Shown: one piece after another, positions 21,116 to 49,013 of the stretch | Position numbering within the stretch: position 1 is the stretch's first letter | Layout: every line of letters starts with the position of its first letter | From: a virus | Reading direction: 5' to 3' (one strand) | Virus record (IMG/VR): IMGVR_UViG_3300028840_006907 | Location: 128,001-192,000 of that record | DNA: 64,000 bases | Notes under the pieces: generated by a model | What the model saw: the letters and a program-made list of their open reading frames with translations, nothing else | Databases searched by the model: none | What the model was told of the DNA's origin: nothing | Program-made: the position numbers and the translations under genes

Positions 21116-21189
21116 GCGCCTGAGGCTCTGAGGTGAGCAACTTGGACTCTAAATCCAAGTTTTTCAGGGTTCGACTCCCTACAGGCGCA
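21116..21189 (+). tRNA. putative amber suppressor tRNA (anticodon CTA)
   Basis: Acceptor GCGCCTG/CAGGCGC, A73, D-stem GCTC/GAGC, anticodon arm ACTTGGA-CTCTAAA-TCCAAGT (loop has U33, CUA, A37), T-loop TTCGACT; non-canonical 7 bp anticodon stem or 3 nt D/anticodon linker and short D-loop. Confidence 0.5.
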
Positions 21190-23726: not shown

Positions 23727-24029
23727 TTATAATATTTCTTTCACTTTGTTTTTTAATGTATCACATTTAGGATCAAATTCTGGCTCTTTTCCATCGTTCC
23801 ATGGTGACTTAATCCAGAAAAAGCATGAGTCAACACGACCCACTCTGATGTCTCCATTCATGTAATCCCTTTGTCCTTTAAAATAAGCCCTCTCAATGGC
23901 TTTAAAGTCGGTAGTGGCCTCTATACTAATGTATTGTATTTTATTGCTCTCAGGGGCAAATAACCGCCATGAGATAAGGAATAGTAAGTAAGCTCCTATT
24001 AAAATTATAAAACTATTAATTTTAAACAT
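23727..24029 (-). CDS. hypothetical membrane-anchored protein
   Basis: N-terminal hydrophobic segment FIILIGAYLLFLISW; stop TAA directly abuts downstream ATG. Confidence 0.4.
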   Translation of the reverse strand: MFKINSFIILIGAYLLFLISWRLFAPESNKIQYISIEATTDFKAIERAYFKGQRDYMNGDIRVGRVDSCFFWIKSPWNDGKEPEFDPKCDTLKNKVKEIL

Positions 24030-24897
24030 ATAAATTGTTCTCTTGTATAATACCAGCTATTAATGTGAGAAAAGGAGACTCCCTAAGATACTTTTCCCGA
24101 TCCTCCTTTAATTCTTTTCTGATATCTGTAGAGGATATCTTTGGTATTTTATTACCAGCATCAAAAAACTTATGTGGTTCTTTCATATACCAATTCACAT
24201 TTGGATCGCGCTTTTCTCCTTGTCTAGATACTACAATGAATGGTATCAATTTTTCAAGGTGTTCATAGTTAACCCATTTATCAAATGTATTGGCATTATC
24301 AAGTCCAATGACATAATTGAATCGGTATTCGTTTTTGGCAAAATCCTCTTCCATAAATTTATTAAGGAAATAATATGTCTCTCCAGCTAGTTCGTGAACA
24401 ATTTCATAATCGCATACTTTCATTCTCTTATCTACCTGTACATATTCTCGACACATGGCTAGCCGTAGTGATGCAGGAGCCATTTCTTTTCCATATAAAT
24501 GTCTGTAGCAGGGGATGTACCAAACTTCATCGAATAACCCTGCTTCATCGAGTAAGAATTTTCCTATAGCAAGATGGCCAGGATGGATGGGATCAAAAGC
24601 ACCCCCGATGAGCGCAACTGATACTTTCCTGCCAAGTTTACGGTATAAAGATCGGCTATTAATTTTGGTGATGTTCATTTCAACCAATTCATTAAAATCA
24701 TAACCGGCTTCATTAATCCATTGTATCAGTGTACCAAGTAGATCGCTCGTTTCATCTTTTAATCCCGTCATGGTCCTGGCTCTTGTCAATTCAAATGCTT
24801 CTTTAAGGATATCATTCAATCTGATATCAGTAGGAGTATTTCCAAAAGCTTCTGAATACGTTTTATTGATATTATTTAATAAATCTGATAAATTCAT
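24022..24897 (-). CDS. nadD: nicotinate/nicotinamide mononucleotide adenylyltransferase (NadD/NMNAT-like) with N-terminal extension
   Basis: GGAFDPIHPGHL (HxGH nucleotidyltransferase motif) and ISSTDIR near the C-terminus; about 100 aa N-terminal helical extension of unknown function. Confidence 0.6.
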   Translation of the reverse strand: MNLSDLLNNINKTYSEAFGNTPTDIRLNDILKEAFELTRARTMTGLKDETSDLLGTLIQWINEAGYDFNELVEMNITKINSRSLYRKLGRKVSVALIGGAFDPIHPGHLAIGKFLLDEAGLFDEVWYIPCYRHLYGKEMAPASLRLAMCREYVQVDKRMKVCDYEIVHELAGETYYFLNKFMEEDFAKNEYRFNYVIGLDNANTFDKWVNYEHLEKLIPFIVVSRQGEKRDPNVNWYMKEPHKFFDAGNKIPKISSTDIRKELKEDREKYLRESPFLTLIAGIIQENNLYV

Positions 24898-25078
24898 TTT
24901 TCAATTTCTTTTTAGGTAAATTTTTTATTATACAATCAATACAAATATCTTTACTTTTCCACTGCCCATTTTCTATAGTTCTTAATACCACCCTATAACT
25001 TTTATCTCTAATAAAGAGCCTGCTATCGTCAATATCCATTTGTTTTTTGCATATATCACATATTGTAATTTTAGCCAT
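24872..25078 (-). CDS. small zinc-ribbon protein
   Basis: CDICKK...CIDCIIK. Confidence 0.35.
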   Translation of the reverse strand: MAKITICDICKKQMDIDDSRLFIRDKSYRVVLRTIENGQWKSKDICIDCIIKNLPKKKLKNEFIRFIK

Positions 25079-25095
25079 TTTGTTTTAAATTACAT

Positions 25096-25887
25096 TTATA
25101 TATCTAAATGGCAAATACGAGGCATTTCCATTTTATGAGCATTCTTTTCATGTCGTTCTAGATATAATTCAAGAACTTTCATTTTTCTTTTTTCTATTGT
25201 TAACATAGATTTCATCGCTTCAAGTCCTTTGATAGTTTTTAAACCACCTAATTTTTTACAAAAATCCATAGCCCATTCCAATTCAGAATATGTAGCTCCA
25301 ATCTGATCTTCATCAGTTCTGCCATCTTCCCATAATCCATCAGTAGGTTTTGCTGTTAAAATATCTGAGTTCACTCCAAGATAGGCTCCCATACCATATA
25401 CCTCAGATTTGACTAGCTCTCCTATTGGACTTATATCAACACCACCATCACCGAATTTTGTAAAGAAACCAATTCCGAAATCTTCAACCATATTCCCAGT
25501 ACCAACAACATAATAATTATGGGTATTTGCGATAGCATAAAGAGCTACCATTCGAAGACGGGATCTGGTATTAACCATGGCAAATTCATTGTAATAATTA
25601 CTATGATTAAAATTATTAAAGACAACTGAAAGATCTTCCGTATGACTGGTAACATTGGTATAGTCTTTTTTTAATTTTTCAACATGTGCTTCTGCTCTGG
25701 GAAGAATATCTTGATTTATTGGCATATGGGCACATATAACAGGTTTATAAGTTCTGGCACATAAATTTGATACAACTGCTGAGTCAATTCCACCTGAAAC
25801 TCCAACTACACAGCCATCTACATGGGATTCCTTCATGTCTCTAATAATCCAATTTACAATATGATCTGAGACTTTTTTATAGTCCAA
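25096..25887 (-). CDS. nadE: NH3-dependent NAD+ synthetase
   Basis: PP-loop GVSGGIDS near N-terminus; length 263 aa typical of NadE. Confidence 0.65.
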   Translation of the reverse strand: MDYKKVSDHIVNWIIRDMKESHVDGCVVGVSGGIDSAVVSNLCARTYKPVICAHMPINQDILPRAEAHVEKLKKDYTNVTSHTEDLSVVFNNFNHSNYYNEFAMVNTRSRLRMVALYAIANTHNYYVVGTGNMVEDFGIGFFTKFGDGGVDISPIGELVKSEVYGMGAYLGVNSDILTAKPTDGLWEDGRTDEDQIGATYSELEWAMDFCKKLGGLKTIKGLEAMKSMLTIEKRKMKVLELYLERHEKNAHKMEMPRICHLDI

Positions 25888-25899
25888 ATTTATCCTCCT

Positions 25900-27624
25900 T
25901 TAATTCATGGCAATTGAGTATATTTTTTTATTGTCAACAAATAACACTTTCATATGTTCATGGTATAATCGCATAGATACATTAATCGGTGTATTCGTAA
26001 TATCCTTACTTCCTTTATTATTTTTAAATAGAGACATTTTATCATTATCGACAGAGATGCACATTCCAGTAGGTAATGTAATAAAATTAACTGGATGGTA
26101 ATCAATCATATCTTCCTGTTTAATATCATAGCTAGTATGGGTTTTATCAAAACAAATTGTATATTTAAAATAACTTCCCTGTTTTTCTGTGACCACTATA
26201 CAGATTCCTTTATCATACCGGGCATCAATGATTCTTTGGCCGTCCAATTCTTTTACATAAGTATTAATACATTTCCCTCTTTCGAAAGGAATAGCTAATC
26301 GTATCTTTGTGAAATCATCCTGTACAATAACACCTCGGAAAGACTTATATGATTTGCTTATTCTACATACAGTTTTAGTCGTATGAATAACTCTCTGGAA
26401 TTTTTCAAAATGATTCTCTATCAATCTTCCATTATTAATGGTGTAAATATACCCATTATACCCCATTATGTCTTCAGCTTTGATGTCGGATATTGATTTA
26501 TTATTTAAATCAAAGAACTCAGCTTTTAAATTCTTGAAATAAACTATTAAGGGATCCGCTCCATAAGCTTCACACATGCCTACTATGGTTGATTTTAAAG
26601 GTTTATGGAACTTAACCACTTTATCTTTATTCTGGTCATATATGGCTTTAGAAGTTATCACAAAGCGTTTATCATTAAAGAAGAAGATATTCCGAATCGG
26701 TTCATTTACTTCGAATACTTTTTCTACTATGAAATCACCTCTACTAGTTATAGTTCTGGCAACTGCTGCTACAACCACGACCTCGTCCGGTAATGGCGGG
26801 ATGGATCTCTCATTATTTTTAAATTCTGATACATACCATTCAAAATGTTTTTTAGGGATCACAGAATAATCTTGGCACATGGCCGGTAATGGCTTTGCTC
26901 CTTTATCAAAATTTGAGACTCCATCATCCATCCTTTTAATCCATTGTTTCGGTTTATAATCGATATGTCTACTTTTGTAAGGGTGAATACCCAGATACAT
27001 TTGATAAGTTACGACACCCCAGGAGAACCAGTCAGAGTACTCAGTAAATTGAGCATTCTTAACCTGTCGATCTCGAACACTATCCATAAGAGCATCTGCT
27101 GGGAAGCTTTTTGTTTTCCAGGCATCCACATCAATGTGATAAACGGTCTTTAAATCACCGCTAAGAAGGAAATTCATCTCATTATAATCAACTACTAGGA
27201 AGCCATTTTTATGGATGTATTGTAGGGCTTTCTGCATTTTAAGAACTAGGTCAGCTATATCTGTTGGACTTAAATGTTTATTGTCTCTGAAAGTCTTAGT
27301 AAATACTTGGCAGAGAAATTCAACTCCATCAACATATCTCATTGTAAACCCAATGGGTGTGTGGTTCCTCACTTCATATAAAGGTTCTATGGGTGACAGG
27401 ATATCATCTCGTTTTAATTCGGTCAATTCGTGTATTTTTGCTTCTGGTATCATATTTTTAGTATCATGATAAATTTTATATGCAATCCCATTTAGATAAA
27501 AAACTGTTCCAAAACCACCAGAAGCTTTATAATTATCATCAGTCAAAGTAACAATTTCTTTTGTTGTCTGAACTTTGAATGACTTCTTTATTATCGGGTT
27601 CATTTTTGTTTTCGGTAAAATCAT
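25900..27624 (-). CDS. Ser/Thr protein kinase-like protein with large C-terminal domain
   Basis: Gly-rich loop GGFGTVF, lysine in IAYKIY, catalytic-loop-like HKNGFLVVDYNEMNFLL, DVDAW, SDWFSWGVVTY; about 330 aa C-terminal region unassigned. Confidence 0.55.
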   Translation of the reverse strand: MILPKTKMNPIIKKSFKVQTTKEIVTLTDDNYKASGGFGTVFYLNGIAYKIYHDTKNMIPEAKIHELTELKRDDILSPIEPLYEVRNHTPIGFTMRYVDGVEFLCQVFTKTFRDNKHLSPTDIADLVLKMQKALQYIHKNGFLVVDYNEMNFLLSGDLKTVYHIDVDAWKTKSFPADALMDSVRDRQVKNAQFTEYSDWFSWGVVTYQMYLGIHPYKSRHIDYKPKQWIKRMDDGVSNFDKGAKPLPAMCQDYSVIPKKHFEWYVSEFKNNERSIPPLPDEVVVVAAVARTITSRGDFIVEKVFEVNEPIRNIFFFNDKRFVITSKAIYDQNKDKVVKFHKPLKSTIVGMCEAYGADPLIVYFKNLKAEFFDLNNKSISDIKAEDIMGYNGYIYTINNGRLIENHFEKFQRVIHTTKTVCRISKSYKSFRGVIVQDDFTKIRLAIPFERGKCINTYVKELDGQRIIDARYDKGICIVVTEKQGSYFKYTICFDKTHTSYDIKQEDMIDYHPVNFITLPTGMCISVDNDKMSLFKNNKGSKDITNTPINVSMRLYHEHMKVLFVDNKKIYSIAMN

Positions 27625-28487
27625 TAATATTCCTCATTTAAATAAATAGTAGCAGTACCAACGTCATCATAATGATGCCAATTATGTTTTTTAACTTTCT
27701 TACCAAAAAAGATCATGCGCTTTTTTACAAATTCACCGGTAGTGTTTTTAAATCCAATAAATTCGGGTATTGTAATATCTAATCCTATATCTTTTTTATA
27801 ACTATCTCTGTAGGTTGATATACCATCTGTACATATTGTAACAGATAAGAGTTTATCCTTCATAATATTGGAAATTTCTTCGGAATAGATTGTATCAAAA
27901 GGTAATGAAGATTCAAGAGGATTTTCTAGCCCCTTTTCTCCTGACAAAGTAATAATTTCCCGAAAGCATTGAGGATTATCTTCACCTTTAATAGCACAAT
28001 TTTTTAAATAGACTGTTCTATCACTTATTAGATAAAATGGGGCATTTAAGGAATAATCTATTTTCATTATTAGCTGATAATTACCGCCATCTTCTTTTCT
28101 ATAATTAGCTGTAATGACACCATCACCCCATGCAAATACCAATACTCTTGAAGACAATCTTATAGTTATTAATAATGTGGCTTCCAAAGCCTTAGGAGTA
28201 ATGGGGTATATCTTTCTTATTTCATCAGCTCTTTTGTGAATGCCGTTTCCGAGATAAAATGAGAGTTCTTTCAGATTTAATCGTTCGAATAATCCAGTTT
28301 GGATACAAAATTCAATATTATATTTAGCAACATGACATAATATTTGAGCACCTACTTCAGAATGATCCGCAGAAGAACATCCATCTGCAACGATGCCATA
28401 CTCAATTCCTTTAAAAGAGCCACTTAATGCATAGTCTTGACAGACTAAATGAGTGCTTCCTTTTTCATAATATGAGTCACAGCTCAC
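27624..28487 (-). CDS. PP2C-family protein phosphatase-like protein
   Basis: YGIVADGCSS, VFAWGDGVI, TICTDGIST, DDVGTATIYL resemble PP2C metal-binding motifs; GTG start behind AAAGGAGG. Confidence 0.5.
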   Translation of the reverse strand: MSCDSYYEKGSTHLVCQDYALSGSFKGIEYGIVADGCSSADHSEVGAQILCHVAKYNIEFCIQTGLFERLNLKELSFYLGNGIHKRADEIRKIYPITPKALEATLLITIRLSSRVLVFAWGDGVITANYRKEDGGNYQLIMKIDYSLNAPFYLISDRTVYLKNCAIKGEDNPQCFREIITLSGEKGLENPLESSLPFDTIYSEEISNIMKDKLLSVTICTDGISTYRDSYKKDIGLDITIPEFIGFKNTTGEFVKKRMIFFGKKVKKHNWHHYDDVGTATIYLNEEY

Positions 28488-28546
28488 AATTACCTCCTTT
28501 TAGTAAGCACAGAAGGCTCCATTACAGAGCCTTCCTGCAAAAATTC

Positions 28547-29314
28547 CTAGTTAAATTTGAAATCTTTAATTGGTTGTGAAGGTTGTCCGGTGCCGAGGGC
28601 ATCTGACTGTGAGCTAACACTCTGACTCATAAACTGGGCTAGTTTAGCTAATTTTGATTCAGAAACATCACCCATTGATATATATTCATCAAGTCCAGCT
28701 TCTTCTTTGAAATCCGTAAGTAATTTCTTTAAATCTTTTCTACCATCATTAACACCAATAAGAATGGTACGAACTGATTCCATCGCTTCATCTTCATCAT
28801 TCATACTGTCTAATGTTTCTTTTATCATTTGTGGAGTAACACCGAATTCGGGGCAATTATCTTCACCATCAGTAATTATGAAAACCATTCCATTAGCATT
28901 TACGATCCTTTCAGAATTATAGAGCTTATTTATATAATCTCTCATGACGTCCAAACCACAAAGAGTCGCTTGAAAAAGATTTGTAGCATTCGCTGGAAAG
29001 ATCACATCGTCGTAATTATCTAGTTCAATATCACTCAGAAGCATCCATCCATGAATTTCCTGGATACCTCCATTATTAAAAGCGATAACACGTAATAAAA
29101 GATTCAAAGCTCGTGGGGAGCCTTTACATGACCCTACACATGCTTTTATCATTTTTTCCAGACCTGTTTTAAACCCTTTCACTGAATAGGTTTTATCAAC
29201 GATTATAGTGACTGCTGTATATTCTGTAGCTCCAAGTCTATCAACTTTAACTTTTGTATAATCGAATTTATGGAGAGATACATCGGAATCACTTACATTC
29301 ATAAACTTAGGCAT
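28547..29314 (-). CDS. von Willebrand factor A (vWA) domain protein, TerY-like
   Basis: VFIITDGEDN and vWA-like alternation of hydrophobic strands; first gene of the vWA / PP2C / kinase triad. Confidence 0.5.
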   Translation of the reverse strand: MPKFMNVSDSDVSLHKFDYTKVKVDRLGATEYTAVTIIVDKTYSVKGFKTGLEKMIKACVGSCKGSPRALNLLLRVIAFNNGGIQEIHGWMLLSDIELDNYDDVIFPANATNLFQATLCGLDVMRDYINKLYNSERIVNANGMVFIITDGEDNCPEFGVTPQMIKETLDSMNDEDEAMESVRTILIGVNDGRKDLKKLLTDFKEEAGLDEYISMGDVSESKLAKLAQFMSQSVSSQSDALGTGQPSQPIKDFKFN

Positions 29315-29326
29315 AAGTTATCCTTT

Positions 29327-30154
29327 CTAGAAAAAGTCCACTGTTGTAGCAACCTGCATACCATAATCATCTGCAGTATACTTGTTAATAAAGTCTTCAC
29401 CATTTTGCTCACATCCAGGTACACTTGAAGTAGCATCTTTGAGTAAAACGAATTTTTTAACTTGGTCGGCACCTAAATATTCAAAGATATCTCTGAATGT
29501 AAAGGAATAGCAGTGTGAAAGAGCTTCACCAGCTCCAAGAATTATATCATATTCCTTGATTACATTGATAAAATCTTCGTTTAATCTGGTTCCTTCATCC
29601 TCTGGGTCAATCACGTCAGCCACTAATGCTGAATAGTGCTCAGTGAAAGGATTACTCCCTTTGGTGGTACGGGGAGCAATACCGTAATAAGTGGCTTCCC
29701 ATTCAGAGACCGCATTGAGAAATTCAGGCTCTAACATTTGTCCATCACTTCCGATAATACAATGTTCAGGCCATATCATTAATTGATATCTGTTATTAGC
29801 CTTTAATTGTTTCAAGTAGTCAACATAACGCTCTTGAAAGCCTGGATTGAAAGCACGGTATTCTCCATCTAAGACCATTTCTAAAGTTAAGTACGTAGGT
29901 ACAGTATTCCCTTTGTGAAGGAAAATAGGTGTGGGGTGGTTTCCCTCTCTGTCAATCCAAGATCGGCTGTGAGCCACGTGGAGCTTATAATGTGAGTCCA
30001 TCGTGATTTGGATTTCATCAATATCACCCCCGAATTTTCGAATCATTTTTGAAAGTCTTGCCATGTCTTCAACGGCACCAGGAACAGTGAGAGTTCCCCT
30101 TGTAAAGTCTTTTTGAGGGTCAATTACCACAAGGCACACTTTAGGTTTTTCCAT
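29327..30154 (-). CDS. pncA: isochorismatase-fold hydrolase, nicotinamidase (PncA)-like
   Basis: VIDPQKDF (catalytic Asp region), WPEHC (nicotinamidase-type motif), candidate catalytic Cys in ALSHCY. Confidence 0.5.
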   Translation of the reverse strand: MEKPKVCLVVIDPQKDFTRGTLTVPGAVEDMARLSKMIRKFGGDIDEIQITMDSHYKLHVAHSRSWIDREGNHPTPIFLHKGNTVPTYLTLEMVLDGEYRAFNPGFQERYVDYLKQLKANNRYQLMIWPEHCIIGSDGQMLEPEFLNAVSEWEATYYGIAPRTTKGSNPFTEHYSALVADVIDPEDEGTRLNEDFINVIKEYDIILGAGEALSHCYSFTFRDIFEYLGADQVKKFVLLKDATSSVPGCEQNGEDFINKYTADDYGMQVATTVDFF

Positions 30155-30201
30155 ATCTTATCCTCCTTTAAGATTTAGTATATGTTATCTGTTATTTATA
30201 A

Positions 30202-30444
30202 TTAAAGCAACCCTTTTATATCAGCCCTTTCAATATCAGTTCTGTTAAAAAAGTTCTTATTTCCTTTTTTTCTAGGTTCTGGTAATACCCCGCATTTTAT
30301 ACGACGGTATATAGTTTGTTTGGATATATTATATTCAGTACAAATATCTCTCAAACTAATTTCATCTCTATGATGTTTGTAAAGTATTTTAGCTACTTCT
30401 TCTGCTATAGCTTTTGCTAATTTTTTAATATCTGCATCATCCAT
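30202..30444 (-). CDS. small HTH DNA-binding protein
   Basis: ISLRDICTEYNISKQTIYRRIKCG helix-turn-helix-like segment. Confidence 0.4.
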   Translation of the reverse strand: MDDADIKKLAKAIAEEVAKILYKHHRDEISLRDICTEYNISKQTIYRRIKCGVLPEPRKKGNKNFFNRTDIERADIKGLL

Positions 30445-30451
30445 AATATAT

Positions 30452-31624
30452 TTATATCATTAAATCTTTTTTACAATGTACAATCATATCTTTATTACCA
30501 GTGTTCTTTCCTTCGTCATCTGATAACTTGACTGTGTCAATCCATCTGCCATTTATCATACAGGCTATCATTTTAATAACAATATTCAATGGTATGACAT
30601 CTACGTCATTTGTAAACCAGGTTCCAATTCCATATGCATCTCTGATCAAATTGATGCAAGCTTTATGGATAGATTTCACTTTATCTATACTGTTAATAGC
30701 ATCAGAGAATACCAATGTTTTAAGCATCGGATCAATTCTTAATTTTTGGTATTTACTTACTGATTTAGTAATGAAATCAAAAGGTGAACCACTATCTTGC
30801 CGGAGACCATCAAAAAGTTTCGCAAAAAATGTATTGAATGTTTTTAGGAATACATCAGTAGTAAATGTATCTGGAAGAGCAATTCCAAGATCTCCTTGAA
30901 ATATATCAGACCATATTTTCAGAGCCATCTCATTAGCCATACGAAATCCATACATAGCTGCATGGAATTGATACCATTCATGAGCTTTTGTTCCTATGGG
31001 AGTTAAATTGTATTTCTTTGCTAGATAAACATTACTAGGTCCAGAGAAACAACTACCTAGATATTGCTTTGCATCACGAACTACTTCATCATGATTCTTT
31101 AGAGAGTATCTTCTACGAGTACCAAATTCAGCGATGGGTACTCCGATTTCTTTAAGAGCCATAAATTTCAGACGATTTCTTTCTTTACGTTCCTTACGAA
31201 TCATCTTTGTCTTACCAGTTTTCTCAAAATAAAGTTGACTGATAGTAGCCATCAAAGGTACTTCCCAAAGAATCTTTCGGTACCAGGGTCCTATATACTT
31301 ACAATGAAAATTAGATCCTTCTTGTGTTAATATTATCTCATCTGGGTTATACCGGTACCCACTAAGAAGATCGATATAGGCAGGATTTAAATAATAACAT
31401 TTTTCTTTAAGAAAGTCTATATCATCTTTGCTTAATGTAAAACCACGAAATGTGTCTATAATTCTCCTTAATTCATCGGCAAAGCCATCTGGAAACTCTC
31501 TACCATCACGGTTTATAAATTGGTACATAGCGAGAGCATTGGGGTATTTCTGACATGCCCCACACTGCATAGTGAATTTATACACATCATTATCGAGTAT
31601 ACCAGCTACGTACTCATTCTCCAT
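30452..31624 (-). CDS. pncB: nicotinate phosphoribosyltransferase (PncB-like)
   Basis: DNDVYKFTM, EFGTRRRYS, GPSNV...GTKAHEW match the NAPRTase signature pattern. Confidence 0.65.
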   Translation of the reverse strand: MENEYVAGILDNDVYKFTMQCGACQKYPNALAMYQFINRDGREFPDGFADELRRIIDTFRGFTLSKDDIDFLKEKCYYLNPAYIDLLSGYRYNPDEIILTQEGSNFHCKYIGPWYRKILWEVPLMATISQLYFEKTGKTKMIRKERKERNRLKFMALKEIGVPIAEFGTRRRYSLKNHDEVVRDAKQYLGSCFSGPSNVYLAKKYNLTPIGTKAHEWYQFHAAMYGFRMANEMALKIWSDIFQGDLGIALPDTFTTDVFLKTFNTFFAKLFDGLRQDSGSPFDFITKSVSKYQKLRIDPMLKTLVFSDAINSIDKVKSIHKACINLIRDAYGIGTWFTNDVDVIPLNIVIKMIACMINGRWIDTVKLSDDEGKNTGNKDMIVHCKKDLMI

Positions 31625-31712: not shown

Positions 31713-31943
31713 TTGGAAACTGAAAAACATATAAAAACGATTATAGCTGAGATTTTATGCCTTAAAGAAGATGAAATAATACCGCAAGCATCTATCGTAG
31801 ATGATCTTGGTGCAGATTCACTAGATGAAATAGAAATTTTAATGGCTTTAGAGGATGAACTTGATATAGATATTCCTGAAAATGAAGCTCAGAGAATGAA
31901 AACAGTTAAGGATATCTTAAAATATATTGAAGAAATCACCTAA
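31713..31943 (+). CDS. acyl carrier protein
   Basis: DLGADSLDEIE phosphopantetheine-attachment motif; 76 aa acidic protein; lone + strand gene within a minus-strand block. Confidence 0.6.
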   Translation: METEKHIKTIIAEILCLKEDEIIPQASIVDDLGADSLDEIEILMALEDELDIDIPENEAQRMKTVKDILKYIEEIT

Positions 31944-32799: not shown

Positions 32800-33726
32800 T
32801 TACCTTTTATGTGTGAGTAATTTTACTTTTAGATTTTTAATATTTTCGTTTTTATTATCACTACTGATGATCTGTGATAATATATCGACAATACCTGGAT
32901 TCTCCAGTTCCTGAACCATCATTTTACTTATCATACCATCAATAGAGATACAGCTATTGATTGTCATTTTTTTCATATTCTTGATATTATTCGCGTTGAC
33001 CACTTCAACGATGGTATTTATTTCACGTTTTATCTCTTCTTCAATGGATTCAATAAGGGTACCTATGACAAAGGTGCGCTCATCAGATCTAGGATCATGG
33101 GGATCATCTGCTATTACAAAAACAGCCTTACATTCTTTGACATTTGCTTTATGCAGAATATCCAGATCAGTAGGCATTCCCCTAATGAAAGAAATTTCAG
33201 TTTTAATATCTTCCGGAAGCTCTTCTAATTTTTCAGTTATTAGTACCATTTTACATTTAGAATATTTGGAAGTATTTTTTATTTCGTGAATGAAATATTT
33301 AATTTTCTTTTCATTGGGATATCCACAAAGGATAACATGATTTTTAAAGGCTATATCCATTAAGCCTCTCCTTTTCCTATTAATAAGATCGATTAATATA
33401 CTGGTTATAACACCGATTAAAGAGCCTATAATACCTATCCCAAGTATCATACAGGCATATGAAATGACAAACCGTCCTATAAAGGTTTTTGCATAAAAAT
33501 CCCCGTATCCTACGGTAGTCATTGTTACAATAGCCCACCAGATTGAATCCAGTAAAGAAATGTCTTGAGAGTCCCTTTCAACAAAATAGAAAGTAACTCC
33601 GAAGAATAGATTTAATACGGCAGCCAAACCTATTACGTATATTAAATCTCTTTTAAAGAGACTCCCAAAACGTAAAAATAATCTGAATATATTCATAAAT
33701 TTTATAATAGACCGTGGGAGAAACAA
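32800..33726 (-). CDS. potassium channel with RCK/TrkA-like cytoplasmic domain
   Basis: Selectivity filter TVGYGD flanked by two hydrophobic helices; VILCGYPNEKK Rossmann-like start of an RCK domain. Confidence 0.6.
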   Translation of the reverse strand: MFLPRSIIKFMNIFRLFLRFGSLFKRDLIYVIGLAAVLNLFFGVTFYFVERDSQDISLLDSIWWAIVTMTTVGYGDFYAKTFIGRFVISYACMILGIGIIGSLIGVITSILIDLINRKRRGLMDIAFKNHVILCGYPNEKKIKYFIHEIKNTSKYSKCKMVLITEKLEELPEDIKTEISFIRGMPTDLDILHKANVKECKAVFVIADDPHDPRSDERTFVIGTLIESIEEEIKREINTIVEVVNANNIKNMKKMTINSCISIDGMISKMMVQELENPGIVDILSQIISSDNKNENIKNLKVKLLTHKR

Positions 33727-33800
33727 CTTTAACTTTATATTTTTAATATTTAGCTTCGTTTATACGAAGAAGGGTAGATCCCCCACGGCTATGTTATTGA

Positions 33801-34469
33801 TTATAAATCATCATACCCTGGTAGATCTTGGCCTAATGCTTTTTCTGTTTCAGCATCAAGACTACCAGTAGGATCGGCACTTTGTTCAACAAGAGCATCA
33901 GAAGCATCTAACTCAGCTTGCATTTTTGCTTCTCTTTCCTTGAATTTAGCAACTGCTGACATGGAACTATCAGTATTTATTGTAGCAATGGCATCATTGG
34001 ATTTTTTAACTTCTTCCATTGTCTTCATGCGATCTATCGCACGTTTCATCGTGTCCAAATTTCCAGATAATGTAGTTACATTGCTCTCTTGCTTTTTATA
34101 AATGTTTTGATACTGTTCAAGACTCTTTTCCAGTGTCTGTAATTCGTTATCAAGTTCTAATTTAATAGCATATTGTTGTTTAGCCAGATCTTCATGTCCC
34201 GCCGTTTTTAATTTTTTTACTTTATCTATGCGACTAACAATTTCTTCTTTTTTAGTACTCACTTTTCTCTGTAAGCCCATTATTGAAGCTTTAGTATTTG
34301 CTAATCCAACTCTTGCTTTTTGAAAGTCCTCTTGTGCCTCTTCAATGTCTTGTTTAGCAAAAGCAATTCGATTTCCATCTTCAATTTTTTCTTCCACTTC
34401 GTTCATCTTTGCTTTACCAAATTTGAATATTGTTCCAAATAAACCCATTATCTTATCCTCCAATTTCAC
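33801..34469 (-). CDS. pspA: PspA/IM30-family protein
   Basis: N-terminus MGLFGTIFKFGKAKMNEVEEKIED matches the PspA/Vipp1 start pattern; remainder coiled-coil. Confidence 0.5.
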   Translation of the reverse strand: MKLEDKIMGLFGTIFKFGKAKMNEVEEKIEDGNRIAFAKQDIEEAQEDFQKARVGLANTKASIMGLQRKVSTKKEEIVSRIDKVKKLKTAGHEDLAKQQYAIKLELDNELQTLEKSLEQYQNIYKKQESNVTTLSGNLDTMKRAIDRMKTMEEVKKSNDAIATINTDSSMSAVAKFKEREAKMQAELDASDALVEQSADPTGSLDAETEKALGQDLPGYDDL

Positions 34470-34857
34470 TAATTTTTTTGATATTTTGACTAACTGTTAA
34501 GACCATCGATACAATTGACGCCTGCAATTCGTTAGAATCAAGGTTTGCGATTTCCAAGACATCTTTAAAAATGATTTTACCTTTACTTGTGTCCCATCCG
34601 AACCCACCGTGAACTGCTTCATCAGCATTTAGCTTTAATAGCAACTCACCAAATTCTTGTGATACTCGTTCGGCTGGACAAATATCCATGAGGAAAATTA
34701 TTGTTGTTTCCTCAACGTCAATAATTACTTCGAGCCCGGTATCGGGTTCGGTTACCAAGAAGATATCATCGGTTTTTTGTTCCGTATCGAAATCTCCTAA
34801 TTCTGTCAACATTTCGAAAACTTTAATTCCGTTTTCAATTTCTTTTTGACTTGCCAT
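34453..34857 (-). CDS. YbjN-like hypothetical protein
   Basis: Weak resemblance only; acidic 134 aa protein. Confidence 0.3.
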   Translation of the reverse strand: MASQKEIENGIKVFEMLTELGDFDTEQKTDDIFLVTEPDTGLEVIIDVEETTIIFLMDICPAERVSQEFGELLLKLNADEAVHGGFGWDTSKGKIIFKDVLEIANLDSNELQASIVSMVLTVSQNIKKISEIGG

Positions 34858-34888
34858 GATTTTTTATTCCTTTTTTATTTGTTATTTG

Positions 34889-35455
34889 TTATCTCATTGA
34901 AAGAATACTTACTTCGTGTTCTTTCACTTGACATCCATACCATATTTCTAGATATTCGTCATCATCACTACCTGACCATTCCAGAAATGCTATTGGATTA
35001 TTAATTTCACTATTCGTACCATATTCACAGATATGTAATGGCTCTCCTTCTTCTCCATTAACTTCAATTTCAACACCGAAAATAGGGGAAGATTTTTGAA
35101 TCCATGTTATATCTTCACCATCAAGTGTAATCTCGAAGTCATGTTCAAAATCTTCTCCATCTTCATCAATAATAGCTCCATAATAATCTGAAGCATCACC
35201 TTCCTGATCCAGATAGAATAATAAGATGTCAGTTACATTATCTACTTTCCGGATCATCAGCATATATTTACGTTTATCCGGAGCTATGACGATATAAGCA
35301 GTATAAGTGAAAAGATCACTTGGTTCGTGATAAATACGTACCTCTTCGATTTTGAAATCCACTCCATCACTAGCTTTAAAAGTAGCAATGGTTTGTAAAT
35401 CGGAGAGGGTCATAATATCACCTTCTCTGTGACCTAGTAATTCTTTTATTTCCAT
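34889..35455 (-). CDS. hypothetical acidic protein
   Basis: ORF track. Confidence 0.4.
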   Translation of the reverse strand: MEIKELLGHREGDIMTLSDLQTIATFKASDGVDFKIEEVRIYHEPSDLFTYTAYIVIAPDKRKYMLMIRKVDNVTDILLFYLDQEGDASDYYGAIIDEDGEDFEHDFEITLDGEDITWIQKSSPIFGVEIEVNGEEGEPLHICEYGTNSEINNPIAFLEWSGSDDDEYLEIWYGCQVKEHEVSILSMR

Positions 35456-35456
35456 C

Positions 35457-36296
35457 TTAACTACCGCCCTTCATTTTAGTTATAATTACGCCAACTATTA
35501 CAGCGACAACTATAAATCCAATAAAAAGAAGAATGTACAGAACTATTTTTGCATCATTTTCATTTGTAGGTTTTCGATCTACATGTACGACTTGTGGTGT
35601 TTGTACATGTTGTACACGAGGAGTAGTTAAAGCAGTTAAAACGAGGGCATCAACAAGAAAATCATCATCGTCATAGACAACAAAAACCCCTGAGCTATTA
35701 CGATAACCGTATCTGCCATTATAAAAGTCAGTTTCATACCGTTGCCCGTTAATTTCACGGTATCTAGGAACATGATCTGGCATTACGTCAGGTTCTTTAT
35801 CATATGTTTGATTACTTAAAGATTTTCGATAAGCTGTTTCAGCTTCTTTTTTAGATTTAAAAGTTTTTCCTTTTAAAGCCTTGTGTTTTGACAGCTTTTT
35901 ATCAACAGCACTTTTCTGGGAAGCATTAAGTTTAGGAACAGTTGTAGTCTGATTTTTACTAGTTCCATCCTTTCCCTTTATAGTACTTGAACCGGTAGGT
36001 CGTGTTAAAGATGACTTGGTATTAGTACCTGTATTATTTTTTAATTCTGCAGCTTTTTTCTCAGCTTCTAATCGCTTTTTCTTTTCTGCTGCGGTTTCAA
36101 CTTTCTTCTTATCATCTTTTTTCTTTACTTTTGATGTCCCGGTAGGACGGGTAACTTGTTTCTTTTCTTGTTTCTTTTTGCTATCGCCACTCTTGCTACT
36201 ACCGGATTTTGATTTAGATTTTGCAGCATAAACATCATCAATTCCGGCACCAGAAACCAAAAGTGAAAGAAATAGAATTATAAAAATTCTTTTCAT
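35457..36296 (-). CDS. Lys-rich protein with N-terminal signal-like and C-terminal transmembrane segments
   Basis: N-terminal MKRIFIILFLSLLVSGAG, K/S/T-rich low-complexity middle, C-terminal IVLYILLFIGFIVVAVIVGVII. Confidence 0.45.
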   Translation of the reverse strand: MKRIFIILFLSLLVSGAGIDDVYAAKSKSKSGSSKSGDSKKKQEKKQVTRPTGTSKVKKKDDKKKVETAAEKKKRLEAEKKAAELKNNTGTNTKSSLTRPTGSSTIKGKDGTSKNQTTTVPKLNASQKSAVDKKLSKHKALKGKTFKSKKEAETAYRKSLSNQTYDKEPDVMPDHVPRYREINGQRYETDFYNGRYGYRNSSGVFVVYDDDDFLVDALVLTALTTPRVQHVQTPQVVHVDRKPTNENDAKIVLYILLFIGFIVVAVIVGVIITKMKGGS

Positions 36297-36304
36297 AATA
36301 ACCT

Positions 36305-36338
36305 TCCATTTAAAAGTGATGGGGGCTAATGAGCCCCC
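36305..36338 (-). terminator. terminator-like hairpin (minus strand)
   Basis: GGGGGCT-AATG-AGCCCCC stem-loop followed on the minus strand by a U-rich stretch, in the 47 nt gap after the flotillin gene. Confidence 0.35.
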
Positions 36339-36343
36339 TTTGC

Positions 36344-38209
36344 TTATGACGCTTCGACTTCTTCTATGAATTCTTGCTCTGCAGGTTCTGGAACTGGTTC
36401 TGTTACCTGTTCTTCGACCTGGGGAGATTCTTTAGGTTTTGTGGAAGTCATCATATTAGACACATTCTTCACTACATTTGGAAGATTATCACCTAATCCT
36501 GCTTCTTTTAATAATTGATCTACAACAGGAGCCTGAGCGCGATATCCAAGAAGTTGATCCAATAAAGATTGAGTAGAAAAACCTCCTGCAGACATTTTTG
36601 ACCCACCGTTACCATTACTATGGCCATTGCTACCGGTCAAACCTGATACGTTGATAACTTTGAAAGCTTCAATTTTTTCAAGGGGTTTTACACTGGATTC
36701 AATTACTGCTGATATGTGTTCAATTATTTGGAGTTTTACACGCATATCAACAATGTCTTTAGAGAGCCTGTTTTCAGCTTCATTGAGTTTTTCCTGACCT
36801 TCAGCTTCGACTTCGTATTTTCTTTCATCGGCATCAGCTTGAATTTTGATAGCCTCAGCTTTGGCTTTGGCTTCAATTTTGATAGCCTCAGCACGATCTT
36901 GAGCTGCTTCTTTTTCAGCCTGTGCAAGAACTTTAATTTTGGCTGCATCTGATCCGGCTACTTCTTCAGCTCTAATAATTGTAATTTCTCTGGCACGATT
37001 AGCAATTTCTTTTTCACGAGCGGTGGTTACTTTTTCCTCTGCAGAAATAGCGAGTGCTCTAGCTTCATTTGCTTCCTGATCAGCCAAAGAGGTTTCTTTA
37101 GATTTATTAGCAACTTCAATATCTCTTTCCTGTTCAGCAAGTTTTATTGCTTTCTGTTTTTCGATGGTAGCTGACTCTACTGCTTGTTCTTTAACAATAG
37201 TAGCTGATTCAATTGCTTGTTCTTTTTCAATATTGGCTTCTTGTAAAGCTTTTTCTTTTATAATATTTGCTTCGGCAATGGCTTGTTCTTTTCTAATATT
37301 CTGTTCTTCAAGAGCTTTGGTAGTTTCGATTGTTTTCTTTTTAACTTCTTTTTCAGATTCTATCCTTGCTTCTTGGGCTATCTTATTTTGTTCAGCATTA
37401 AATTTTTCTTTTGTGGCATTTTCTTCTGCTGTCCTAGTAGCAATTTCACGTTCTTGTTCAAGTCTAGAATACTCTTTTTCTTTATTAATTTTTAAAGTCT
37501 GTTGTTCAGCTTGAAGATTTTTTGTTTCAATTTTTACTAGATTATCTCTTTCAATCTCATTACGTTCTTTTCTACGCTCTTCGATGATTCTAGTTAATGC
37601 TGTCAATCCCTCAGCATCAAAAGCATTATTCTCATTGAAGTGCTCTCTACTGGTTTGATCAAAACCTGTAAGTGACACAGTTTCAAGCTCTAAGCCATTT
37701 TTCTTAAGGTCTTCCAGAACATTGTTTTGGACTTTTTGCACAAAATCAGCACGTTGCTCATGCAGTTCTCTCATTTGCATTTGAGCAGCAACAGCTCTTA
37801 AGGCGTCAACGAATTTACCTTCAATAAGTTCACGTAGTTTCTCTGGGTCAAGAGTGCGGTCACCAAGAGTTTGAGCGGCATTTGCTATGGAATCAGCTTC
37901 TGGTTGTACCCGCATATAAAACTCTACAAGAACGTCAACTCTCATACGATCTTTTGTAATTAATGCGTCCTTTTCATTTCTTCTTACCGGTAATTTTAAA
38001 GTACTAAGTTTTACCCAGGTTATTTGATGAAGTACAGGTAATACTACTGCTCCACCTTCTTTTATAACTTTTTTCTTGCCCATACCAGTACGGACAAAAG
38101 CCATATCAGATGAAGCTTTTACGTACATCCTAGCAATAATTAATCCTATAACAATTAGTGCCACTAGGATTATACCTGCCATAATTAAAATAGGCATAAG
38201 GTTTTCCAT
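36344..38209 (-). CDS. flotillin-like SPFH/band-7 protein
   Basis: N-terminal TM helix, SPFH-like region, then long E/A/K coiled-coil with repeats (EANIIKEKALQEANIEKEQAIESATIVKEQAVESATIEKQKAI). Confidence 0.55.
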   Translation of the reverse strand: MENLMPILIMAGIILVALIVIGLIIARMYVKASSDMAFVRTGMGKKKVIKEGGAVVLPVLHQITWVKLSTLKLPVRRNEKDALITKDRMRVDVLVEFYMRVQPEADSIANAAQTLGDRTLDPEKLRELIEGKFVDALRAVAAQMQMRELHEQRADFVQKVQNNVLEDLKKNGLELETVSLTGFDQTSREHFNENNAFDAEGLTALTRIIEERRKERNEIERDNLVKIETKNLQAEQQTLKINKEKEYSRLEQEREIATRTAEENATKEKFNAEQNKIAQEARIESEKEVKKKTIETTKALEEQNIRKEQAIAEANIIKEKALQEANIEKEQAIESATIVKEQAVESATIEKQKAIKLAEQERDIEVANKSKETSLADQEANEARALAISAEEKVTTAREKEIANRAREITIIRAEEVAGSDAAKIKVLAQAEKEAAQDRAEAIKIEAKAKAEAIKIQADADERKYEVEAEGQEKLNEAENRLSKDIVDMRVKLQIIEHISAVIESSVKPLEKIEAFKVINVSGLTGSNGHSNGNGGSKMSAGGFSTQSLLDQLLGYRAQAPVVDQLLKEAGLGDNLPNVVKNVSNMMTSTKPKESPQVEEQVTEPVPEPAEQEFIEEVEAS

Positions 38210-38244
38210 TTGTTAAATCCCTTTCAGTTGATTTTTTAATTTAA

Positions 38245-38949
38245 TTAAAGTTCATTTTCGATACATCTAAATGTACCGTCTTTCTCCTTTCGAATTATTA
38301 AGACCTCATCACCAGCTTTAAATTCAGCGTCATCTTCTTCGGGTTCCAGGTAAACAAGATGTTGCTGTCCGTGTTTATCTTTAAGCCGTGCTTCAGCTCT
38401 AAGACCTCTTTTTGTACTACCAACAGTAATAGTTGCAAGGGTTCCAATAAATTCATCAGATGAGACCGCAGTGCTCTCATCTTTGAATGCAATATGACTG
38501 CATAATTTTGATATATAACGTGATATCAAAATCGAAAGAACAAAAGAGGCTGGCACAATTATAAACCATGGAAAGTAATGACTAGTATATTTTTTTATAT
38601 AAAATTGACCTATTAGACCTATACCGGAGAATGAAGATAAAAATATGATGAAGTAAACGAGCATCGGTACTTTTCCTTTCACCCAAATAAATAGCTTGGA
38701 TAAAGCAGGAACACTTGCTCCTTCTCCTACATCAGCTTCTACATCTACATCTGCGTCAGCATCTATGTCAATTTCAATTTCAGGTACGTCTATATCTGGT
38801 ACATCTACGTCAGCATCAAAATCTGGAATTAATCCATCTAGGAAACCAGAGATCACTCCGGATGAGAGTACTTCTAATAAAAAAATTAATACTAACAATA
38901 CTAATGCTACTGAAAAGGCCGTATTTTCAGTAGAAAGAAAGAGTTCCAT
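38245..38949 (-). CDS. NfeD-like membrane protein
   Basis: TM segments, acidic DxDxD linker, C-terminal OB-like tail; trimmed to ATG behind AAGGAAG; lies next to the flotillin gene. Confidence 0.45.
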   Translation of the reverse strand: MELFLSTENTAFSVALVLLVLIFLLEVLSSGVISGFLDGLIPDFDADVDVPDIDVPEIEIDIDADADVDVEADVGEGASVPALSKLFIWVKGKVPMLVYFIIFLSSFSGIGLIGQFYIKKYTSHYFPWFIIVPASFVLSILISRYISKLCSHIAFKDESTAVSSDEFIGTLATITVGSTKRGLRAEARLKDKHGQQHLVYLEPEEDDAEFKAGDEVLIIRKEKDGTFRCIENEL

Positions 38950-39076
38950 TTTACTTCCTTCTTTGTAATTTGTAAATCTTATGGTTTTGGTTAATAGTGT
39001 ATTGAGACTTTTATGGTTAAAGGATTGGTTATTGCTATATTGTCCTCCTTTCAATTATTTAATTGAATATATTTAT

Positions 39077-45982: not shown

Positions 45983-46906
45983 TTAAATGCCTGTTTGTAG
46001 TCTATAACTGATTAAAACTCTTTTTTGTATTGTATTTCCATAAATTCTGTGATCGAAAGCATCTTTCCCTTTTGTCTTTACCCATAAAAAGCCGTCTTTA
46101 TATTTAACTAGTGCGAATTGGCCTTTTAATTTTTTTCCATTAAAATTGAGAATATACTTGGTATCTCCTTCGGAATAAATAAGATCGAAAGTACCTTTAT
46201 CCCAAATTTTAACTTTACCTGCACCATAACCATCTTTTATTTCACCTTCGAATTGGCCATAAGCTATGGGATGATCTTCAGTTTCAATCAGATATACTTT
46301 GTTCTTTCTGGTAGGAATTTCGCGCAGTTTATTAACGAAAGACCTGTATACTGTTCCTGGATCCTTTGATCCTTTACCTGTAGGTTCATTGGTTTGAGGT
46401 CTCTTTTTATCATAGTTTTTAAGGGATCTTTCTAGTGATTTTACGGGGAATTCAAGTCTAACATCCCAATGTTTTCCAGCTTTGTCAGCTTCATGATTAT
46501 GGATAACGAATTTACCTTTATAACCTTGTTTCATTTTTTCCAGGTCATATCCGGCTGTAATAGTTCTGACTATATGAGATTCACCATTTATGCTTCGATT
46601 TATGATTGATGCAATTTTTTTGGATAACTTTTTATATTCTTCTGCGAAGGCATCAAATTTTTGAATAGCTTTTTTGATCTCATATTCTTTTACACCAGAA
46701 AGTGCTATTACAATTTGAGAGTCTTTTCGGTTAATGGTAAAACCGTGTTTACTTGCTATTTTAAAAACTCTTTTAGAAGGTTCATTATTAAAAATAAAAG
46801 CCCAATGATTTTTATACCATCCTAAACTAGCGGGTTTTTCTGGTATTAGGGCTTCAGCAGCATTTATGAGAGGTCCCTCTAAATGTATATGAGCTATTTT
46901 ATCCAT
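45983..46906 (-). CDS. protein with LigD-type 3'-phosphoesterase domain
   Basis: KFVIHNHEADKAGKHWDVRLE and ETEDHPIAYGQFEGEI...YGAGKVKIWDKG match the LigD phosphoesterase signature. Confidence 0.55.
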   Translation of the reverse strand: MDKIAHIHLEGPLINAAEALIPEKPASLGWYKNHWAFIFNNEPSKRVFKIASKHGFTINRKDSQIVIALSGVKEYEIKKAIQKFDAFAEEYKKLSKKIASIINRSINGESHIVRTITAGYDLEKMKQGYKGKFVIHNHEADKAGKHWDVRLEFPVKSLERSLKNYDKKRPQTNEPTGKGSKDPGTVYRSFVNKLREIPTRKNKVYLIETEDHPIAYGQFEGEIKDGYGAGKVKIWDKGTFDLIYSEGDTKYILNFNGKKLKGQFALVKYKDGFLWVKTKGKDAFDHRIYGNTIQKRVLISYRLQTGI

Positions 46907-47768: not shown

Positions 47769-47782
47769 AATATTATTTCTCC

Positions 47783-48363: not shown

Positions 48364-48375
48364 ATTTGATTCCAA

Positions 48376-48951: not shown

Positions 48952-49013
48952 AAAGTGTATAATCCTTATCTAAAGTAAGAATTATACACTTCGTATTAAA
49001 AGATAATTAGCAA

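Follow-up and report, generated by a model that had tools for sequence, protein, structure and literature searches.

Deamidating NAD+ salvage genes and an embedded vWA-PP2C-kinase triad in DNA that is very probably from a huge phage

Depletion of NAD+ is a major anti-phage strategy. NAD+ salvage genes are part of a nine-gene array at positions 24022-31624 of the DNA analysed here, a stretch of 64,000 nucleotides of the IMG/VR record IMGVR_UViG_3300028840_006907 (positions 128,001 to 192,000; below, the window), which very probably belongs to a huge phage. An initial annotation had assigned four genes of the array to consecutive steps of the Preiss-Handler route, from nicotinamide back to NAD+, and had presented them as a new, third route of NAD+ reconstitution in phages. 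All four enzymes are indeed encoded, by co-directional and tightly spaced genes; the genes themselves, however, are not consecutive. The gene of the PncA-like nicotinamidase is followed by those of a von Willebrand factor A (vWA) protein, a PP2C-type phosphatase and a Ser/Thr kinase, a triad that went unmentioned in the initial annotation. On balance, we favour the view that the array is a complete operon for deamidating NAD+ salvage, with a nicotinamidase and a phospho-switch module at its core, which would maintain or restore NAD+ during infection.

Four salvage enzymes within a nine-gene array

The nine open reading frames (ORFs) are all on the minus strand, with intergenic distances of -26 to +59 nt. 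From the first gene to the last, they are (aa, amino acids):

30452..31624, minus strand: pncB, first gene of the array, nicotinate phosphoribosyltransferase, 390 aa (NF003704, TIGR01514, Pfam NAPRTase_N and NAPRTase)
30202..30444, minus strand: helix-turn-helix (HTH) protein, HTH_17/excisionase-like, 80 aa (PF12728, 6e-7; phrog_9834, 8e-8)
29327..30154, minus strand: PncA-like protein of isochorismatase fold, very probably a long-form nicotinamidase, 275 aa (AlphaFold2 model, Foldseek, conserved residues)
28547..29314, minus strand: vWA-domain protein, TerY-like, 255 aa (PF00092 in homologues, MIDAS-type motif)
27624..28487, minus strand: PP2C-type protein phosphatase, 287 aa (PF13672 PP2C_2, 4.5e-16)
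25900..27624, minus strand: Ser/Thr protein kinase with a C-terminal beta-propeller, 574 aa (PF00069, 5.6e-9; AlphaFold2 model)
25096..25887, minus strand: nadE, single-domain NAD+ synthetase, 263 aa (TIGR00552, PF02540, phrog_11189)
24872..25078, minus strand: zinc-ribbon-like ORF with a CxxC...CxxC sequence motif, 68 aa
24022..24897, minus strand: MazG-like domain fused to NadD, 291 aa (PF01467, TIGR00482, MazG motif, PF03819 in homologues)

All the motifs quoted in the initial annotation were found in the translated minus-strand ORFs: VIDPQKDF, WPEHC and ALSHCY in the PncA-like protein; YKFTM, FGTRRR and GTKAHEW (motif His included) in PncB; GGAFDPIHPGHL in NadD; and GVSGGIDS in NadE. Five ORFs are interleaved among the four enzyme genes, those of the HTH protein, the vWA protein, the PP2C phosphatase, the Ser/Thr kinase and the 68-aa CxxC protein. 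The stop of the PP2C gene and the start of the kinase gene overlap by 1 nt, and the 68-aa ORF, between nadE and the MazG-NadD gene, overlaps the start of the latter by 26 nt. This small ORF had no family match in Pfam and NCBIfam searches and no relative in the retrieved loci except on an identical contig. The 80-aa HTH protein is possibly a local regulator; among 161 related loci (see below) it is present solely on the identical contig, and in those loci PncA is instead often adjoined by an NrtR or Nudix gene. A promoter and terminator scan of the 23.4-32.1 kb region gave counts near the shuffled expectation in this AT-rich DNA and was uninformative.

Three of the four enzymes are readily identified, and the profile searches proposed in the initial annotation confirmed the NAPRTase, CTP_transf_like and NAD synthase families for PncB, NadD and NadE, respectively. 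PncB scores above the curated cutoffs of two NCBIfam equivalog models, NF003704 (406 bits, cutoff 379) and TIGR01514 (364 bits, cutoff 270), and is therefore a nicotinate-type enzyme, not a Nampt; the Pfam domains NAPRTase_N (1e-29) and NAPRTase (1e-49) are also found. NadE matches TIGR00552 (171 bits, cutoff 64), PF02540 (2.6e-45) and the phage family phrog_11189 'NAD synthetase' (2.7e-67). Since it has a single domain, without glutaminase domain, it is of the NH3-dependent type. The NadD domain spans residues about 94-291, with a CTP_transf_like match beginning at residue 96, and is recognized by PF01467 (1.4e-17) and TIGR00482 (3e-29). Its significant PDB matches are NadD structures, from 1e-13, plus one uncharacterised protein (3h05), and the HxGH and SSTxIR motifs are kept in its homologues.

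NadD had also been described as carrying an unexplained N-terminal extension of about 100 aa. The extension is present, with about 90 aa, but it does have an explanation: residues about 1-90 correspond to a MazG-like domain. This identity follows from the presence of PF03819 (MazG), together with PF01467, in the precomputed annotations of more than half of the 120 closest NadD homologues, and from an intact MazG-type ExxE...ExxD motif, in which an alignment of 30 homologues shows E33, E49 and D52 to be invariant and E36 to be conserved to at least 90%. The window's own protein gave no PF03819 match at E <= 0.01. The ExxE...ExxD motif is the metal-binding motif of MazG-type all-alpha NTP pyrophosphohydrolases, and NadD is an adenylyltransferase that releases pyrophosphate. 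The MazG-NadD fusion is recurrent, being found on many contigs of 200-470 kb, and a literature search found no mention of it.

The first step of the route depends on the PncA-like protein. Its match to NF008623 is weak (8e-4, 19 bits; cutoff 174), and PF00857 (Isochorismatase) was detected in 13 of the 120 homologues listed. Its best PDB sequence matches are nicotinamidases, the top one being yeast Pnc1 (E 1e-3). The alignment with Pnc1 covers VIDPQKDF, D-x-H (DWH in Pnc1) and WPxHC (WPVHC in Pnc1); it includes D12, which aligns with the N-terminal catalytic Asp of Pnc1, as well as D53/H55 and H131. An AlphaFold2 (AF2) model, built on 35 homologues, has a mean predicted local distance difference test score (pLDDT) of 95.2 and a predicted template modelling score (pTM) of 0.92. 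When this model was compared with the PDB using Foldseek, ranks 1 to 12 were all nicotinamidases, with E from 1.9e-15 (2wta) to 1.3e-9. They come from A. baumannii, yeast, P. horikoshii, Drosophila, Leishmania and S. pneumoniae, and other isochorismatase-fold enzymes rank lower. Structure prediction, also suggested in the initial annotation, has thus yielded a confident model whose top fold matches are nicotinamidases only. Moreover, all of 97 homologues keep the catalytic triad D12/K165/C215 and the metal ligands D53/H55/H131; the loss of the catalytic triad, which the initial annotation had named as refuting its reading, is not seen in these sequences. To our knowledge, the D-x-H...H metal site is specific to nicotinamidases within the isochorismatase fold. 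Because of the fold matches and of the conserved triad and metal ligands, the PncA-like protein is, very probably, a nicotinamidase that belongs to a long and divergent type (260-280 aa).

The PncA-like and vWA genes share one reading frame and both end with TAG, and the window encodes a CUA suppressor tRNA. Amber read-through from the first gene into the second was considered and rejected, because a TAA lies two codons past the TAG and because neither the frame nor the stop type is conserved in relatives.

A nicotinamidase module shared by phages and bacteria

The vWA protein of the window had no direct Pfam match, and its alignment, used as a profile against PDB sequences, retrieved nothing significant. 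Its assignment comes from the Pfam matches of its homologues, 19 of 38 of which match PF00092 VWA (best 7e-9). The residues of the metal-ion-dependent adhesion site (MIDAS), D40, S44, T111 and D149, are invariant in the homologues, and the motif is intact. The C-terminal tail is Ser-rich and strongly conserved, with the consensus FVSxSISSQSQALGTGGPSQP. In the kinase, the catalytic residues G36 G37, K50, E66, D146, N151 and D165 are invariant in homologues. The kinase domain corresponds to residues about 1-280 and the beta-propeller to residues about 298-574; in the AF2 model (pLDDT 89.5), about 28 beta-strands are found in the C-terminal half. The best fold match of this model is LRRK2, a kinase and WD40 protein.

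The three domain types recall the TerY-P triad, which was reportedly defined by Anantharaman et al. in 2012. As described in PMC11090510, that triad consists of a TerY-like vWA protein, a PP2C phosphatase and a Ser/Thr kinase. In a PADLOC scan, no model matched the vWA or PP2C protein and no TerY-P model matched any protein of the triad; the kinase gave weak matches only, to the non-TerY-P models PD-T4-6 (1e-5) and mad6.

Linkage was studied in 81 viral loci, 80 of the 134 IMG/VR stretches encoding the PncA-like family having been retrieved, and in 80 bacterial loci out of at least 588 that encode it. Genes for vWA-like, PP2C and kinase proteins are found on the same strand downstream of the PncA-like gene in 71-72 of the 81 viral loci. 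Within 10 kb of the PncA-like gene, tblastn detected PncB in 21 of these loci, NadE in 12 and NadD in 7. In the bacterial loci, which include Mb-sized contigs of Spirochaetota and Chthonomonadaceae, vWA follows the PncA-like gene in 54 cases; PP2C was found in 37 and the kinase in 41. The median gap between the PncA and vWA genes is about 30 nt. Conversely, when viral loci were anchored on the kinase, the PncA-like gene was within 8 kb in 68 of 80, the exceptions being mostly modules lengthened by gene insertions or truncated at the end of a contig, and PP2C accompanied the kinase in 78 of 80. Overall, more than 100 loci show the vWA-PP2C-kinase adjacency. Together with the nicotinamidase gene, these three genes form a conserved and apparently undescribed module common to huge phages and many bacteria.

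The salvage genes also recur with the module. The order PncB-PncA-vWA-PP2C-kinase-NadE-NadD is found on a 170-kb viral contig (L008; PncA identity 65%), and a 2.28-Mb Spirochaetota contig (L089) has the order pncB-nadE-pncA-vWA-PP2C-kinase. Where the triad is absent, PncB often comes directly after PncA (L058, L059) or within a few genes (L044, L071, L073), and in some bacterial loci pncB is divergently upstream of the PncA-like gene (for example L087, L088, L124). The flanking ORFs of the 161 loci were clustered, 139 loci having an intact PncA-like ORF. After the triad, NAD/ADP-ribose genes were the commonest neighbours. Among these 139, PncB neighbours were found in 32, NadE in 20 (short form 11, long form 9) and NadD in 8. 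A Nudix cluster is present in 51; it corresponds to NrtR (Nudix and NrtR_WHD) in bacteria and to a NadM-like-Nudix fusion in phages. ADP-ribose-type neighbours were WGR-PARP (14 loci), ADP-ribosylglycohydrolase (ARH; 12), NADAR (10) and Tpt1/KptA (5). This NAD/ADP-ribose neighbourhood provides independent support for a nicotinamide/NAD+ function of the PncA-like protein and also ties the triad to NAD+ metabolism. Relatives of PARP, ARH, NADAR, Nudix, Tpt1 and macro-like proteins were searched for in the window by tblastn and none was found.

PncA-like sequences do not differ between loci that have the triad and loci that lack it, and no triad-specific residue, such as a phospho-site present only together with the triad, was found. 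This fits the idea that the triad is an accessory or regulatory layer that leaves the action of the enzyme unchanged.

Several particular loci deserve mention. Examples of NAD/ADP-ribose neighbours are at L053:1594-2880, L106:6078-7010, L043:4137-4616, L119:9215-9778, L158:5102-5803 and L056:8949-9872. In phage loci (for example L024, L027, L035 and L055; cluster c9, as at L027:9098-9955), LAGLIDADG-type homing endonuclease genes and other small ORFs are repeatedly inserted in or near the module, which then spans up to 10 kb with the gene order intact. In Pyrinomonadaceae/Blastocatellia (L098, L131, L134, L138, L153; for example L098:14300-16522), the kinase gene is followed by that of a conserved 740-aa protein with an N-terminal S-adenosylmethionine methyltransferase domain and a large uncharacterised C-terminal region; it was found in seven loci, bacteria only. 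Finally, several bacterial-binned contigs of 300-400 kb carry the module with PncB and NadE: L146 (412,640 bp, 'Parcubacteria'), L092 (320,667 bp) and L124 (319,214 bp). Their sizes are typical of huge phages, and they may be mis-binned phage genomes.

Proposed function and its alternatives

From established knowledge of the pathway, the following flux can be proposed. The long-form nicotinamidase would convert nicotinamide to nicotinate and NH3. PncB would then form nicotinate mononucleotide (NaMN) from nicotinate, phosphoribosyl pyrophosphate (PRPP) and ATP, and the NadD domain would adenylate NaMN with ATP to give nicotinate adenine dinucleotide (NaAD). Ammonia-dependent NadE would finally produce NAD+ from NaAD, NH3 and ATP, so that the ammonia released at the first step could be a co-substrate of the last one. 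Speculatively, the triad would be a reversible phosphorylation switch that senses or gates the nicotinamide branch of NAD+ metabolism. The kinase and PP2C may reversibly phosphorylate the Ser-rich tail of the vWA protein, a likely phospho-acceptor, or one of the enzymes; the variable beta-propeller would be a likely input domain, through which an infection or NAD-stress signal would gate nicotinamide recycling. During infection, the NAD+ pool would thereby be maintained or restored after NAD+-cleaving effectors have released nicotinamide, and NAD+-consuming enzymes of the phage would also be fed. A counter-defence purpose, itself speculative, is plausible because SIR2, TIR and related NADases yield nicotinamide. 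The array could serve counter-defence or plain NAD+ supply, two possibilities that the present computation does not separate.

A more specific view can be put forward tentatively. The nicotinamidase, vWA, PP2C and kinase-propeller proteins might make up an undescribed phospho-signalling module that responds to NAD+ cleavage or infection stress by turning nicotinamide recycling on or off. In phages that also have PncB, MazG-NadD and NadE, it would then form a regulated fourth NAD+ reconstitution pathway directed against NAD-depleting immunity.

It should, however, be noted that several observations weigh against a salvage operon of this kind. No Pfam family matches the PncA-like protein, not even Isochorismatase (PF00857), a family that the initial annotation had proposed to search for; its identity to solved nicotinamidases is about 18%, and it has about 60-90 extra residues. 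The NadD score against TIGR00482, 102 bits, is slightly below the cutoff of 112. No PRPP synthetase is seen within the window. The deamidating route recycles nicotinamide only, not ADP-ribose, at the cost of PRPP and at least 2 ATP. The triad, and not PncB, NadD or NadE, is the dominant partner of the PncA-like gene, so that the primary role of the module may not be salvage.

Among the alternatives, the one that best survives is that of an ordinary auxiliary metabolic operon, providing NAD+ for phage replication and phage enzymes and unrelated to NAD-depleting immunity, in which the triad merely regulates expression or activity. The same contig encodes, about 7-9 kb past the high-coordinate end of the window, a LigA-type NAD+-dependent DNA ligase of 653 aa (L242:1842-3803); the phage therefore has its own NAD+-consuming replication enzyme, a circumstance that fits plain NAD+ supply as well as counter-defence. 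The same argument has been made for 'NAD-jumbo phages' (PMC11662467), and in bacterial chromosomes the module adjoins NrtR, a housekeeping-type NAD regulator. On the other hand, LigA releases nicotinamide mononucleotide (NMN) and not nicotinamide, so that entry through a nicotinamidase is not needed to meet the demand of the ligase. Nicotinamide is rather the signature product of SIR2, TIR and SEFIR NADases, PARPs and ADP-ribosyltransferases (ARTs), and neighbourhoods of the module are rich in conflict-type NAD/ADP-ribose genes (PARP, ARH, NADAR, Tpt1). We regard a purely metabolic role as a genuine possibility, though not the probable one.

An unlikely alternative is that the module primarily removes nicotinamide, or signals, and that salvage is secondary, with PncB, NadE and NadD merely disposing of nicotinate. 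Nicotinamide removal could relieve product inhibition of a PARP, sirtuin or ART of the phage or host, or could starve the known NAD+ reconstitution pathways NARP1/NARP2 of competing phages, as a form of superinfection exclusion or defence. This would account for the near-obligate partnership with the triad, not with PncB, and for the recurrence of PARP, ARH and NADAR genes nearby; in addition, TerY-P-type triads are reported as stand-alone anti-phage systems in PMC11090510, citing Gao 2020. It is at odds with the full or near-full Preiss-Handler set that surrounds the module in the window and in L008, L089, L091 and L146, with the presence of PncB close behind PncA where the triad is absent, with the lack of a PADLOC defence match for the vWA and PP2C proteins (the kinase matching only PD-T4-6 and mad6, weakly), and with the sameness of PncA sequences with and without the triad.

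It is quite unlikely that the PncA-like protein is an isochorismatase-fold amidohydrolase acting on another substrate, for instance a modified pyridine or a nucleoside-like amide, the operon then starting from nicotinate. Its escape from Pfam, its low identity to known enzymes, its large insertions and an association with a triad not known for canonical PncA would be in keeping with this idea. However, the D-x-H...H metal site and WPxHC are invariant, the twelve top fold matches are all nicotinamidases, ahead of other isochorismatase-fold enzymes, and linkage to PncB and NrtR is recurrent.

As for the origin of the DNA, the phage-like context claimed in the initial annotation is borne out by several features. 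Thirteen tRNA genes are scattered among small ORFs at 117-21189; one of them, at 21116-21189, is a suppressor tRNA with a CTA (amber) anticodon, labelled 'Pyl' by ARAGORN. TAG is nevertheless the normal stop of 13 of the 97 long ORFs of the window, including the PncA-like and vWA ones, and coding density with code 11 is 88%. The CTA tRNA and TAG stops could reflect late-stage TAG recoding, which has been reported for some large phages. PHROG matches include UvsX-like, SbcC/SbcD-like and clamp proteins, and homing-endonuclease-type and Cas4-like nucleases are present. The window also contains a member of phrog_4243, a family otherwise limited to large or jumbo phages (for example LR756500, Ralstonia phage RsoM2USA, T4-like Rhizobium phages). 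Identical proteins are encoded by contigs that measure 388,651 bp and up to 469,617 bp. Of the 80 IMG/VR stretches retrieved for the PncA-like family, 20 are on contigs of more than 200 kb, and relatives are present on IMG/VR contigs of 200-485 kb. Among GenBank phages, the family is confined to metagenomic huge phages of 462-595 kb and one fragment; the curated huge phages with relatives are LR756511, LR745208 and LR756500. A bacterial chromosome or another large element is a very unlikely source: the 64-kb window has no capsid, terminase or other phage structural gene (the initial annotation had proposed to look for terminase and capsid genes elsewhere), the module is common in bacterial metagenome-assembled genomes and the window's own contig is absent among the IMG/VR matches listed, points that tell against a phage, but the window has no ribosomal or housekeeping gene, its tRNA genes, PHROG matches, homing endonucleases and phage-only family shared with jumbo phages all argue for one, as do the contigs of 388-470 kb, and the PncA and kinase proteins have their nearest relatives on contigs from IMG/VR and in curated huge phages.

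Outside the array, a 76-aa acyl-carrier-protein-like gene (PP-binding; 31713-31943, plus strand) is divergent from pncB, with an 88-bp spacer. Directly upstream of the array, at 32800-39054 on the minus strand, is a run of genes of membrane-stress type, which might protect the membrane during infection:

32800-33726, minus strand: K+ channel with RCK/TrkA domain
33801-34469, minus strand: PspA/IM30
within 32800-39054, minus strand: CesT-like chaperone
36344-38209, minus strand: flotillin/Band_7 protein
38245-39054, minus strand: YqiJ

Two further cargo regions on the minus strand (45983-50534 and 59218-63538) encode a LigD-type 3'-phosphoesterase domain protein, a rubrerythrin/ferritin-like protein and a GT9 heptosyltransferase-like protein; in the same regions, a gene for a Cas4-like PD-(D/E)XK nuclease adjoins SbcCD-like and UvsX/RecA-like genes. 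Beyond the window, a RecD2-like helicase gene (L242:3806-6085) directly follows the LigA-type ligase gene.

Comparison with known NAD+ pathways and signalling triads

The idea of a new, third, four-enzyme route does not stand. Four enzymes that take nicotinamide to NAD+ have already been reported in a huge phage, 5-SewaE (PMC10747093, 2023), and the third place has been taken by NARP3, which consists of PnuC and NadR (PMC13464706, August 2026). Jumbo phages with pncB-nadD-nadE clusters, such as Kuafu_71, are also described in PMC11662467 (2024), as are 174 'NAD-jumbo phages'. For phages, NadV, NadM and NadR are all that is listed in the surveys of Iyer et al. (PMC7824862, PMC9503650). A complete Preiss-Handler route in a phage is therefore already in the literature, at the level of annotation. 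Our literature search found no experimental test of the deamidating route in evasion of phage defence. Within its scope, which did not extend to the founding TerY-P paper, it also found no nicotinamidase linked to a vWA-PP2C-kinase triad.

The deamidating phage route being known from annotation, the window offers a compact and complete test case. Of greater use is the link between the nicotinamidase step and a kinase-phosphatase-vWA switch, seen in more than 100 phage and bacterial loci. If this link is functional, NAD+ salvage would be under the post-translational control of a TerY-P-like device, and a poorly understood triad would gain a metabolic context. The finding would also point to a large nicotinamidase family that standard Pfam annotation overlooks, so that phage nicotinamide salvage may be under-counted in surveys of auxiliary metabolic genes.

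5-SewaE and the 'NAD-jumbo phages' share with the window a phage size above 200 kb, the enzymes PncB, NadD and NadE (with four enzymes from nicotinamide in 5-SewaE), clustered genes and a proposed phage-driven NAD+ synthesis. Their reports give KEGG-type annotations and, as far as the text consulted shows, make no mention of the vWA-PP2C-kinase triad, of the MazG-NadD fusion or of a divergent long PncA; in the window, by contrast, Pfam misses the nicotinamidase and the triad lies between the salvage genes. Canonical PncA/Pnc1 (PDB 2wta, 2h0r, 1ilw, 3pl1) has in common with the PncA-like family the isochorismatase fold, the Asp-Lys-Cys triad, the Asp-x-His...His metal site and WPxHC. It is, however, shorter (180-215 aa versus 260-280 aa), and the near-obligate link to a phospho-signalling triad, seen in the PncA-like family, is not known for it. 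With TerY-P, as presented in PMC11090510, the window triad shares the three domain types, their order and a tight co-directional linkage, the MIDAS of the window vWA protein being intact. The kinases differ at the C-terminus, which is a beta-propeller in the window and, in the TerY-P described there, a zinc ribbon (CoCoNuT type) or an OB fold (Gao type). Unlike TerY-P, moreover, the window triad is locked to a nicotinamidase and present in phages.

The proven phage pathways are NARP1 (Adps and Namat), NARP2 (Nampt and Nmnat) and NARP3 (PnuC and NadR; PMC13464706). None of their pairs was recognized in the array: the nine proteins gave no match to Adps (PRPS-like) and Namat (Nampt-like), the phosphoribosyltransferase being a PncB equivalog, nor to PnuC and NadR-like proteins; in place of Nampt and Nmnat (NadM/NadR-type), matches were to PncB and NadD, and a tblastn search of the window gave no Nudix/NadM-like relative. 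As with NARP1-3, NAD+ would be rebuilt in the infected cell. The window route would start from nicotinamide, as do NARP1 and NARP2, and would need PRPP and ATP, as does NARP2. In contrast to NARP1-3, it would be deamidated, passing through nicotinate, NaMN and NaAD before a final amidation, and would use four enzymes instead of two, without reuse of ADP-ribose and without a transporter; counter-defence, which has been shown for NARP1-3, is speculative here. KVP40-type salvage (NadV with NatV/NadM-Nudix) is likewise phage-encoded and starts from nicotinamide, but it is non-deamidating (nicotinamide to NMN to NAD+) and needs no PncA, PncB or NadE. In some related phages, NadM-Nudix genes adjoin the PncA-like module.

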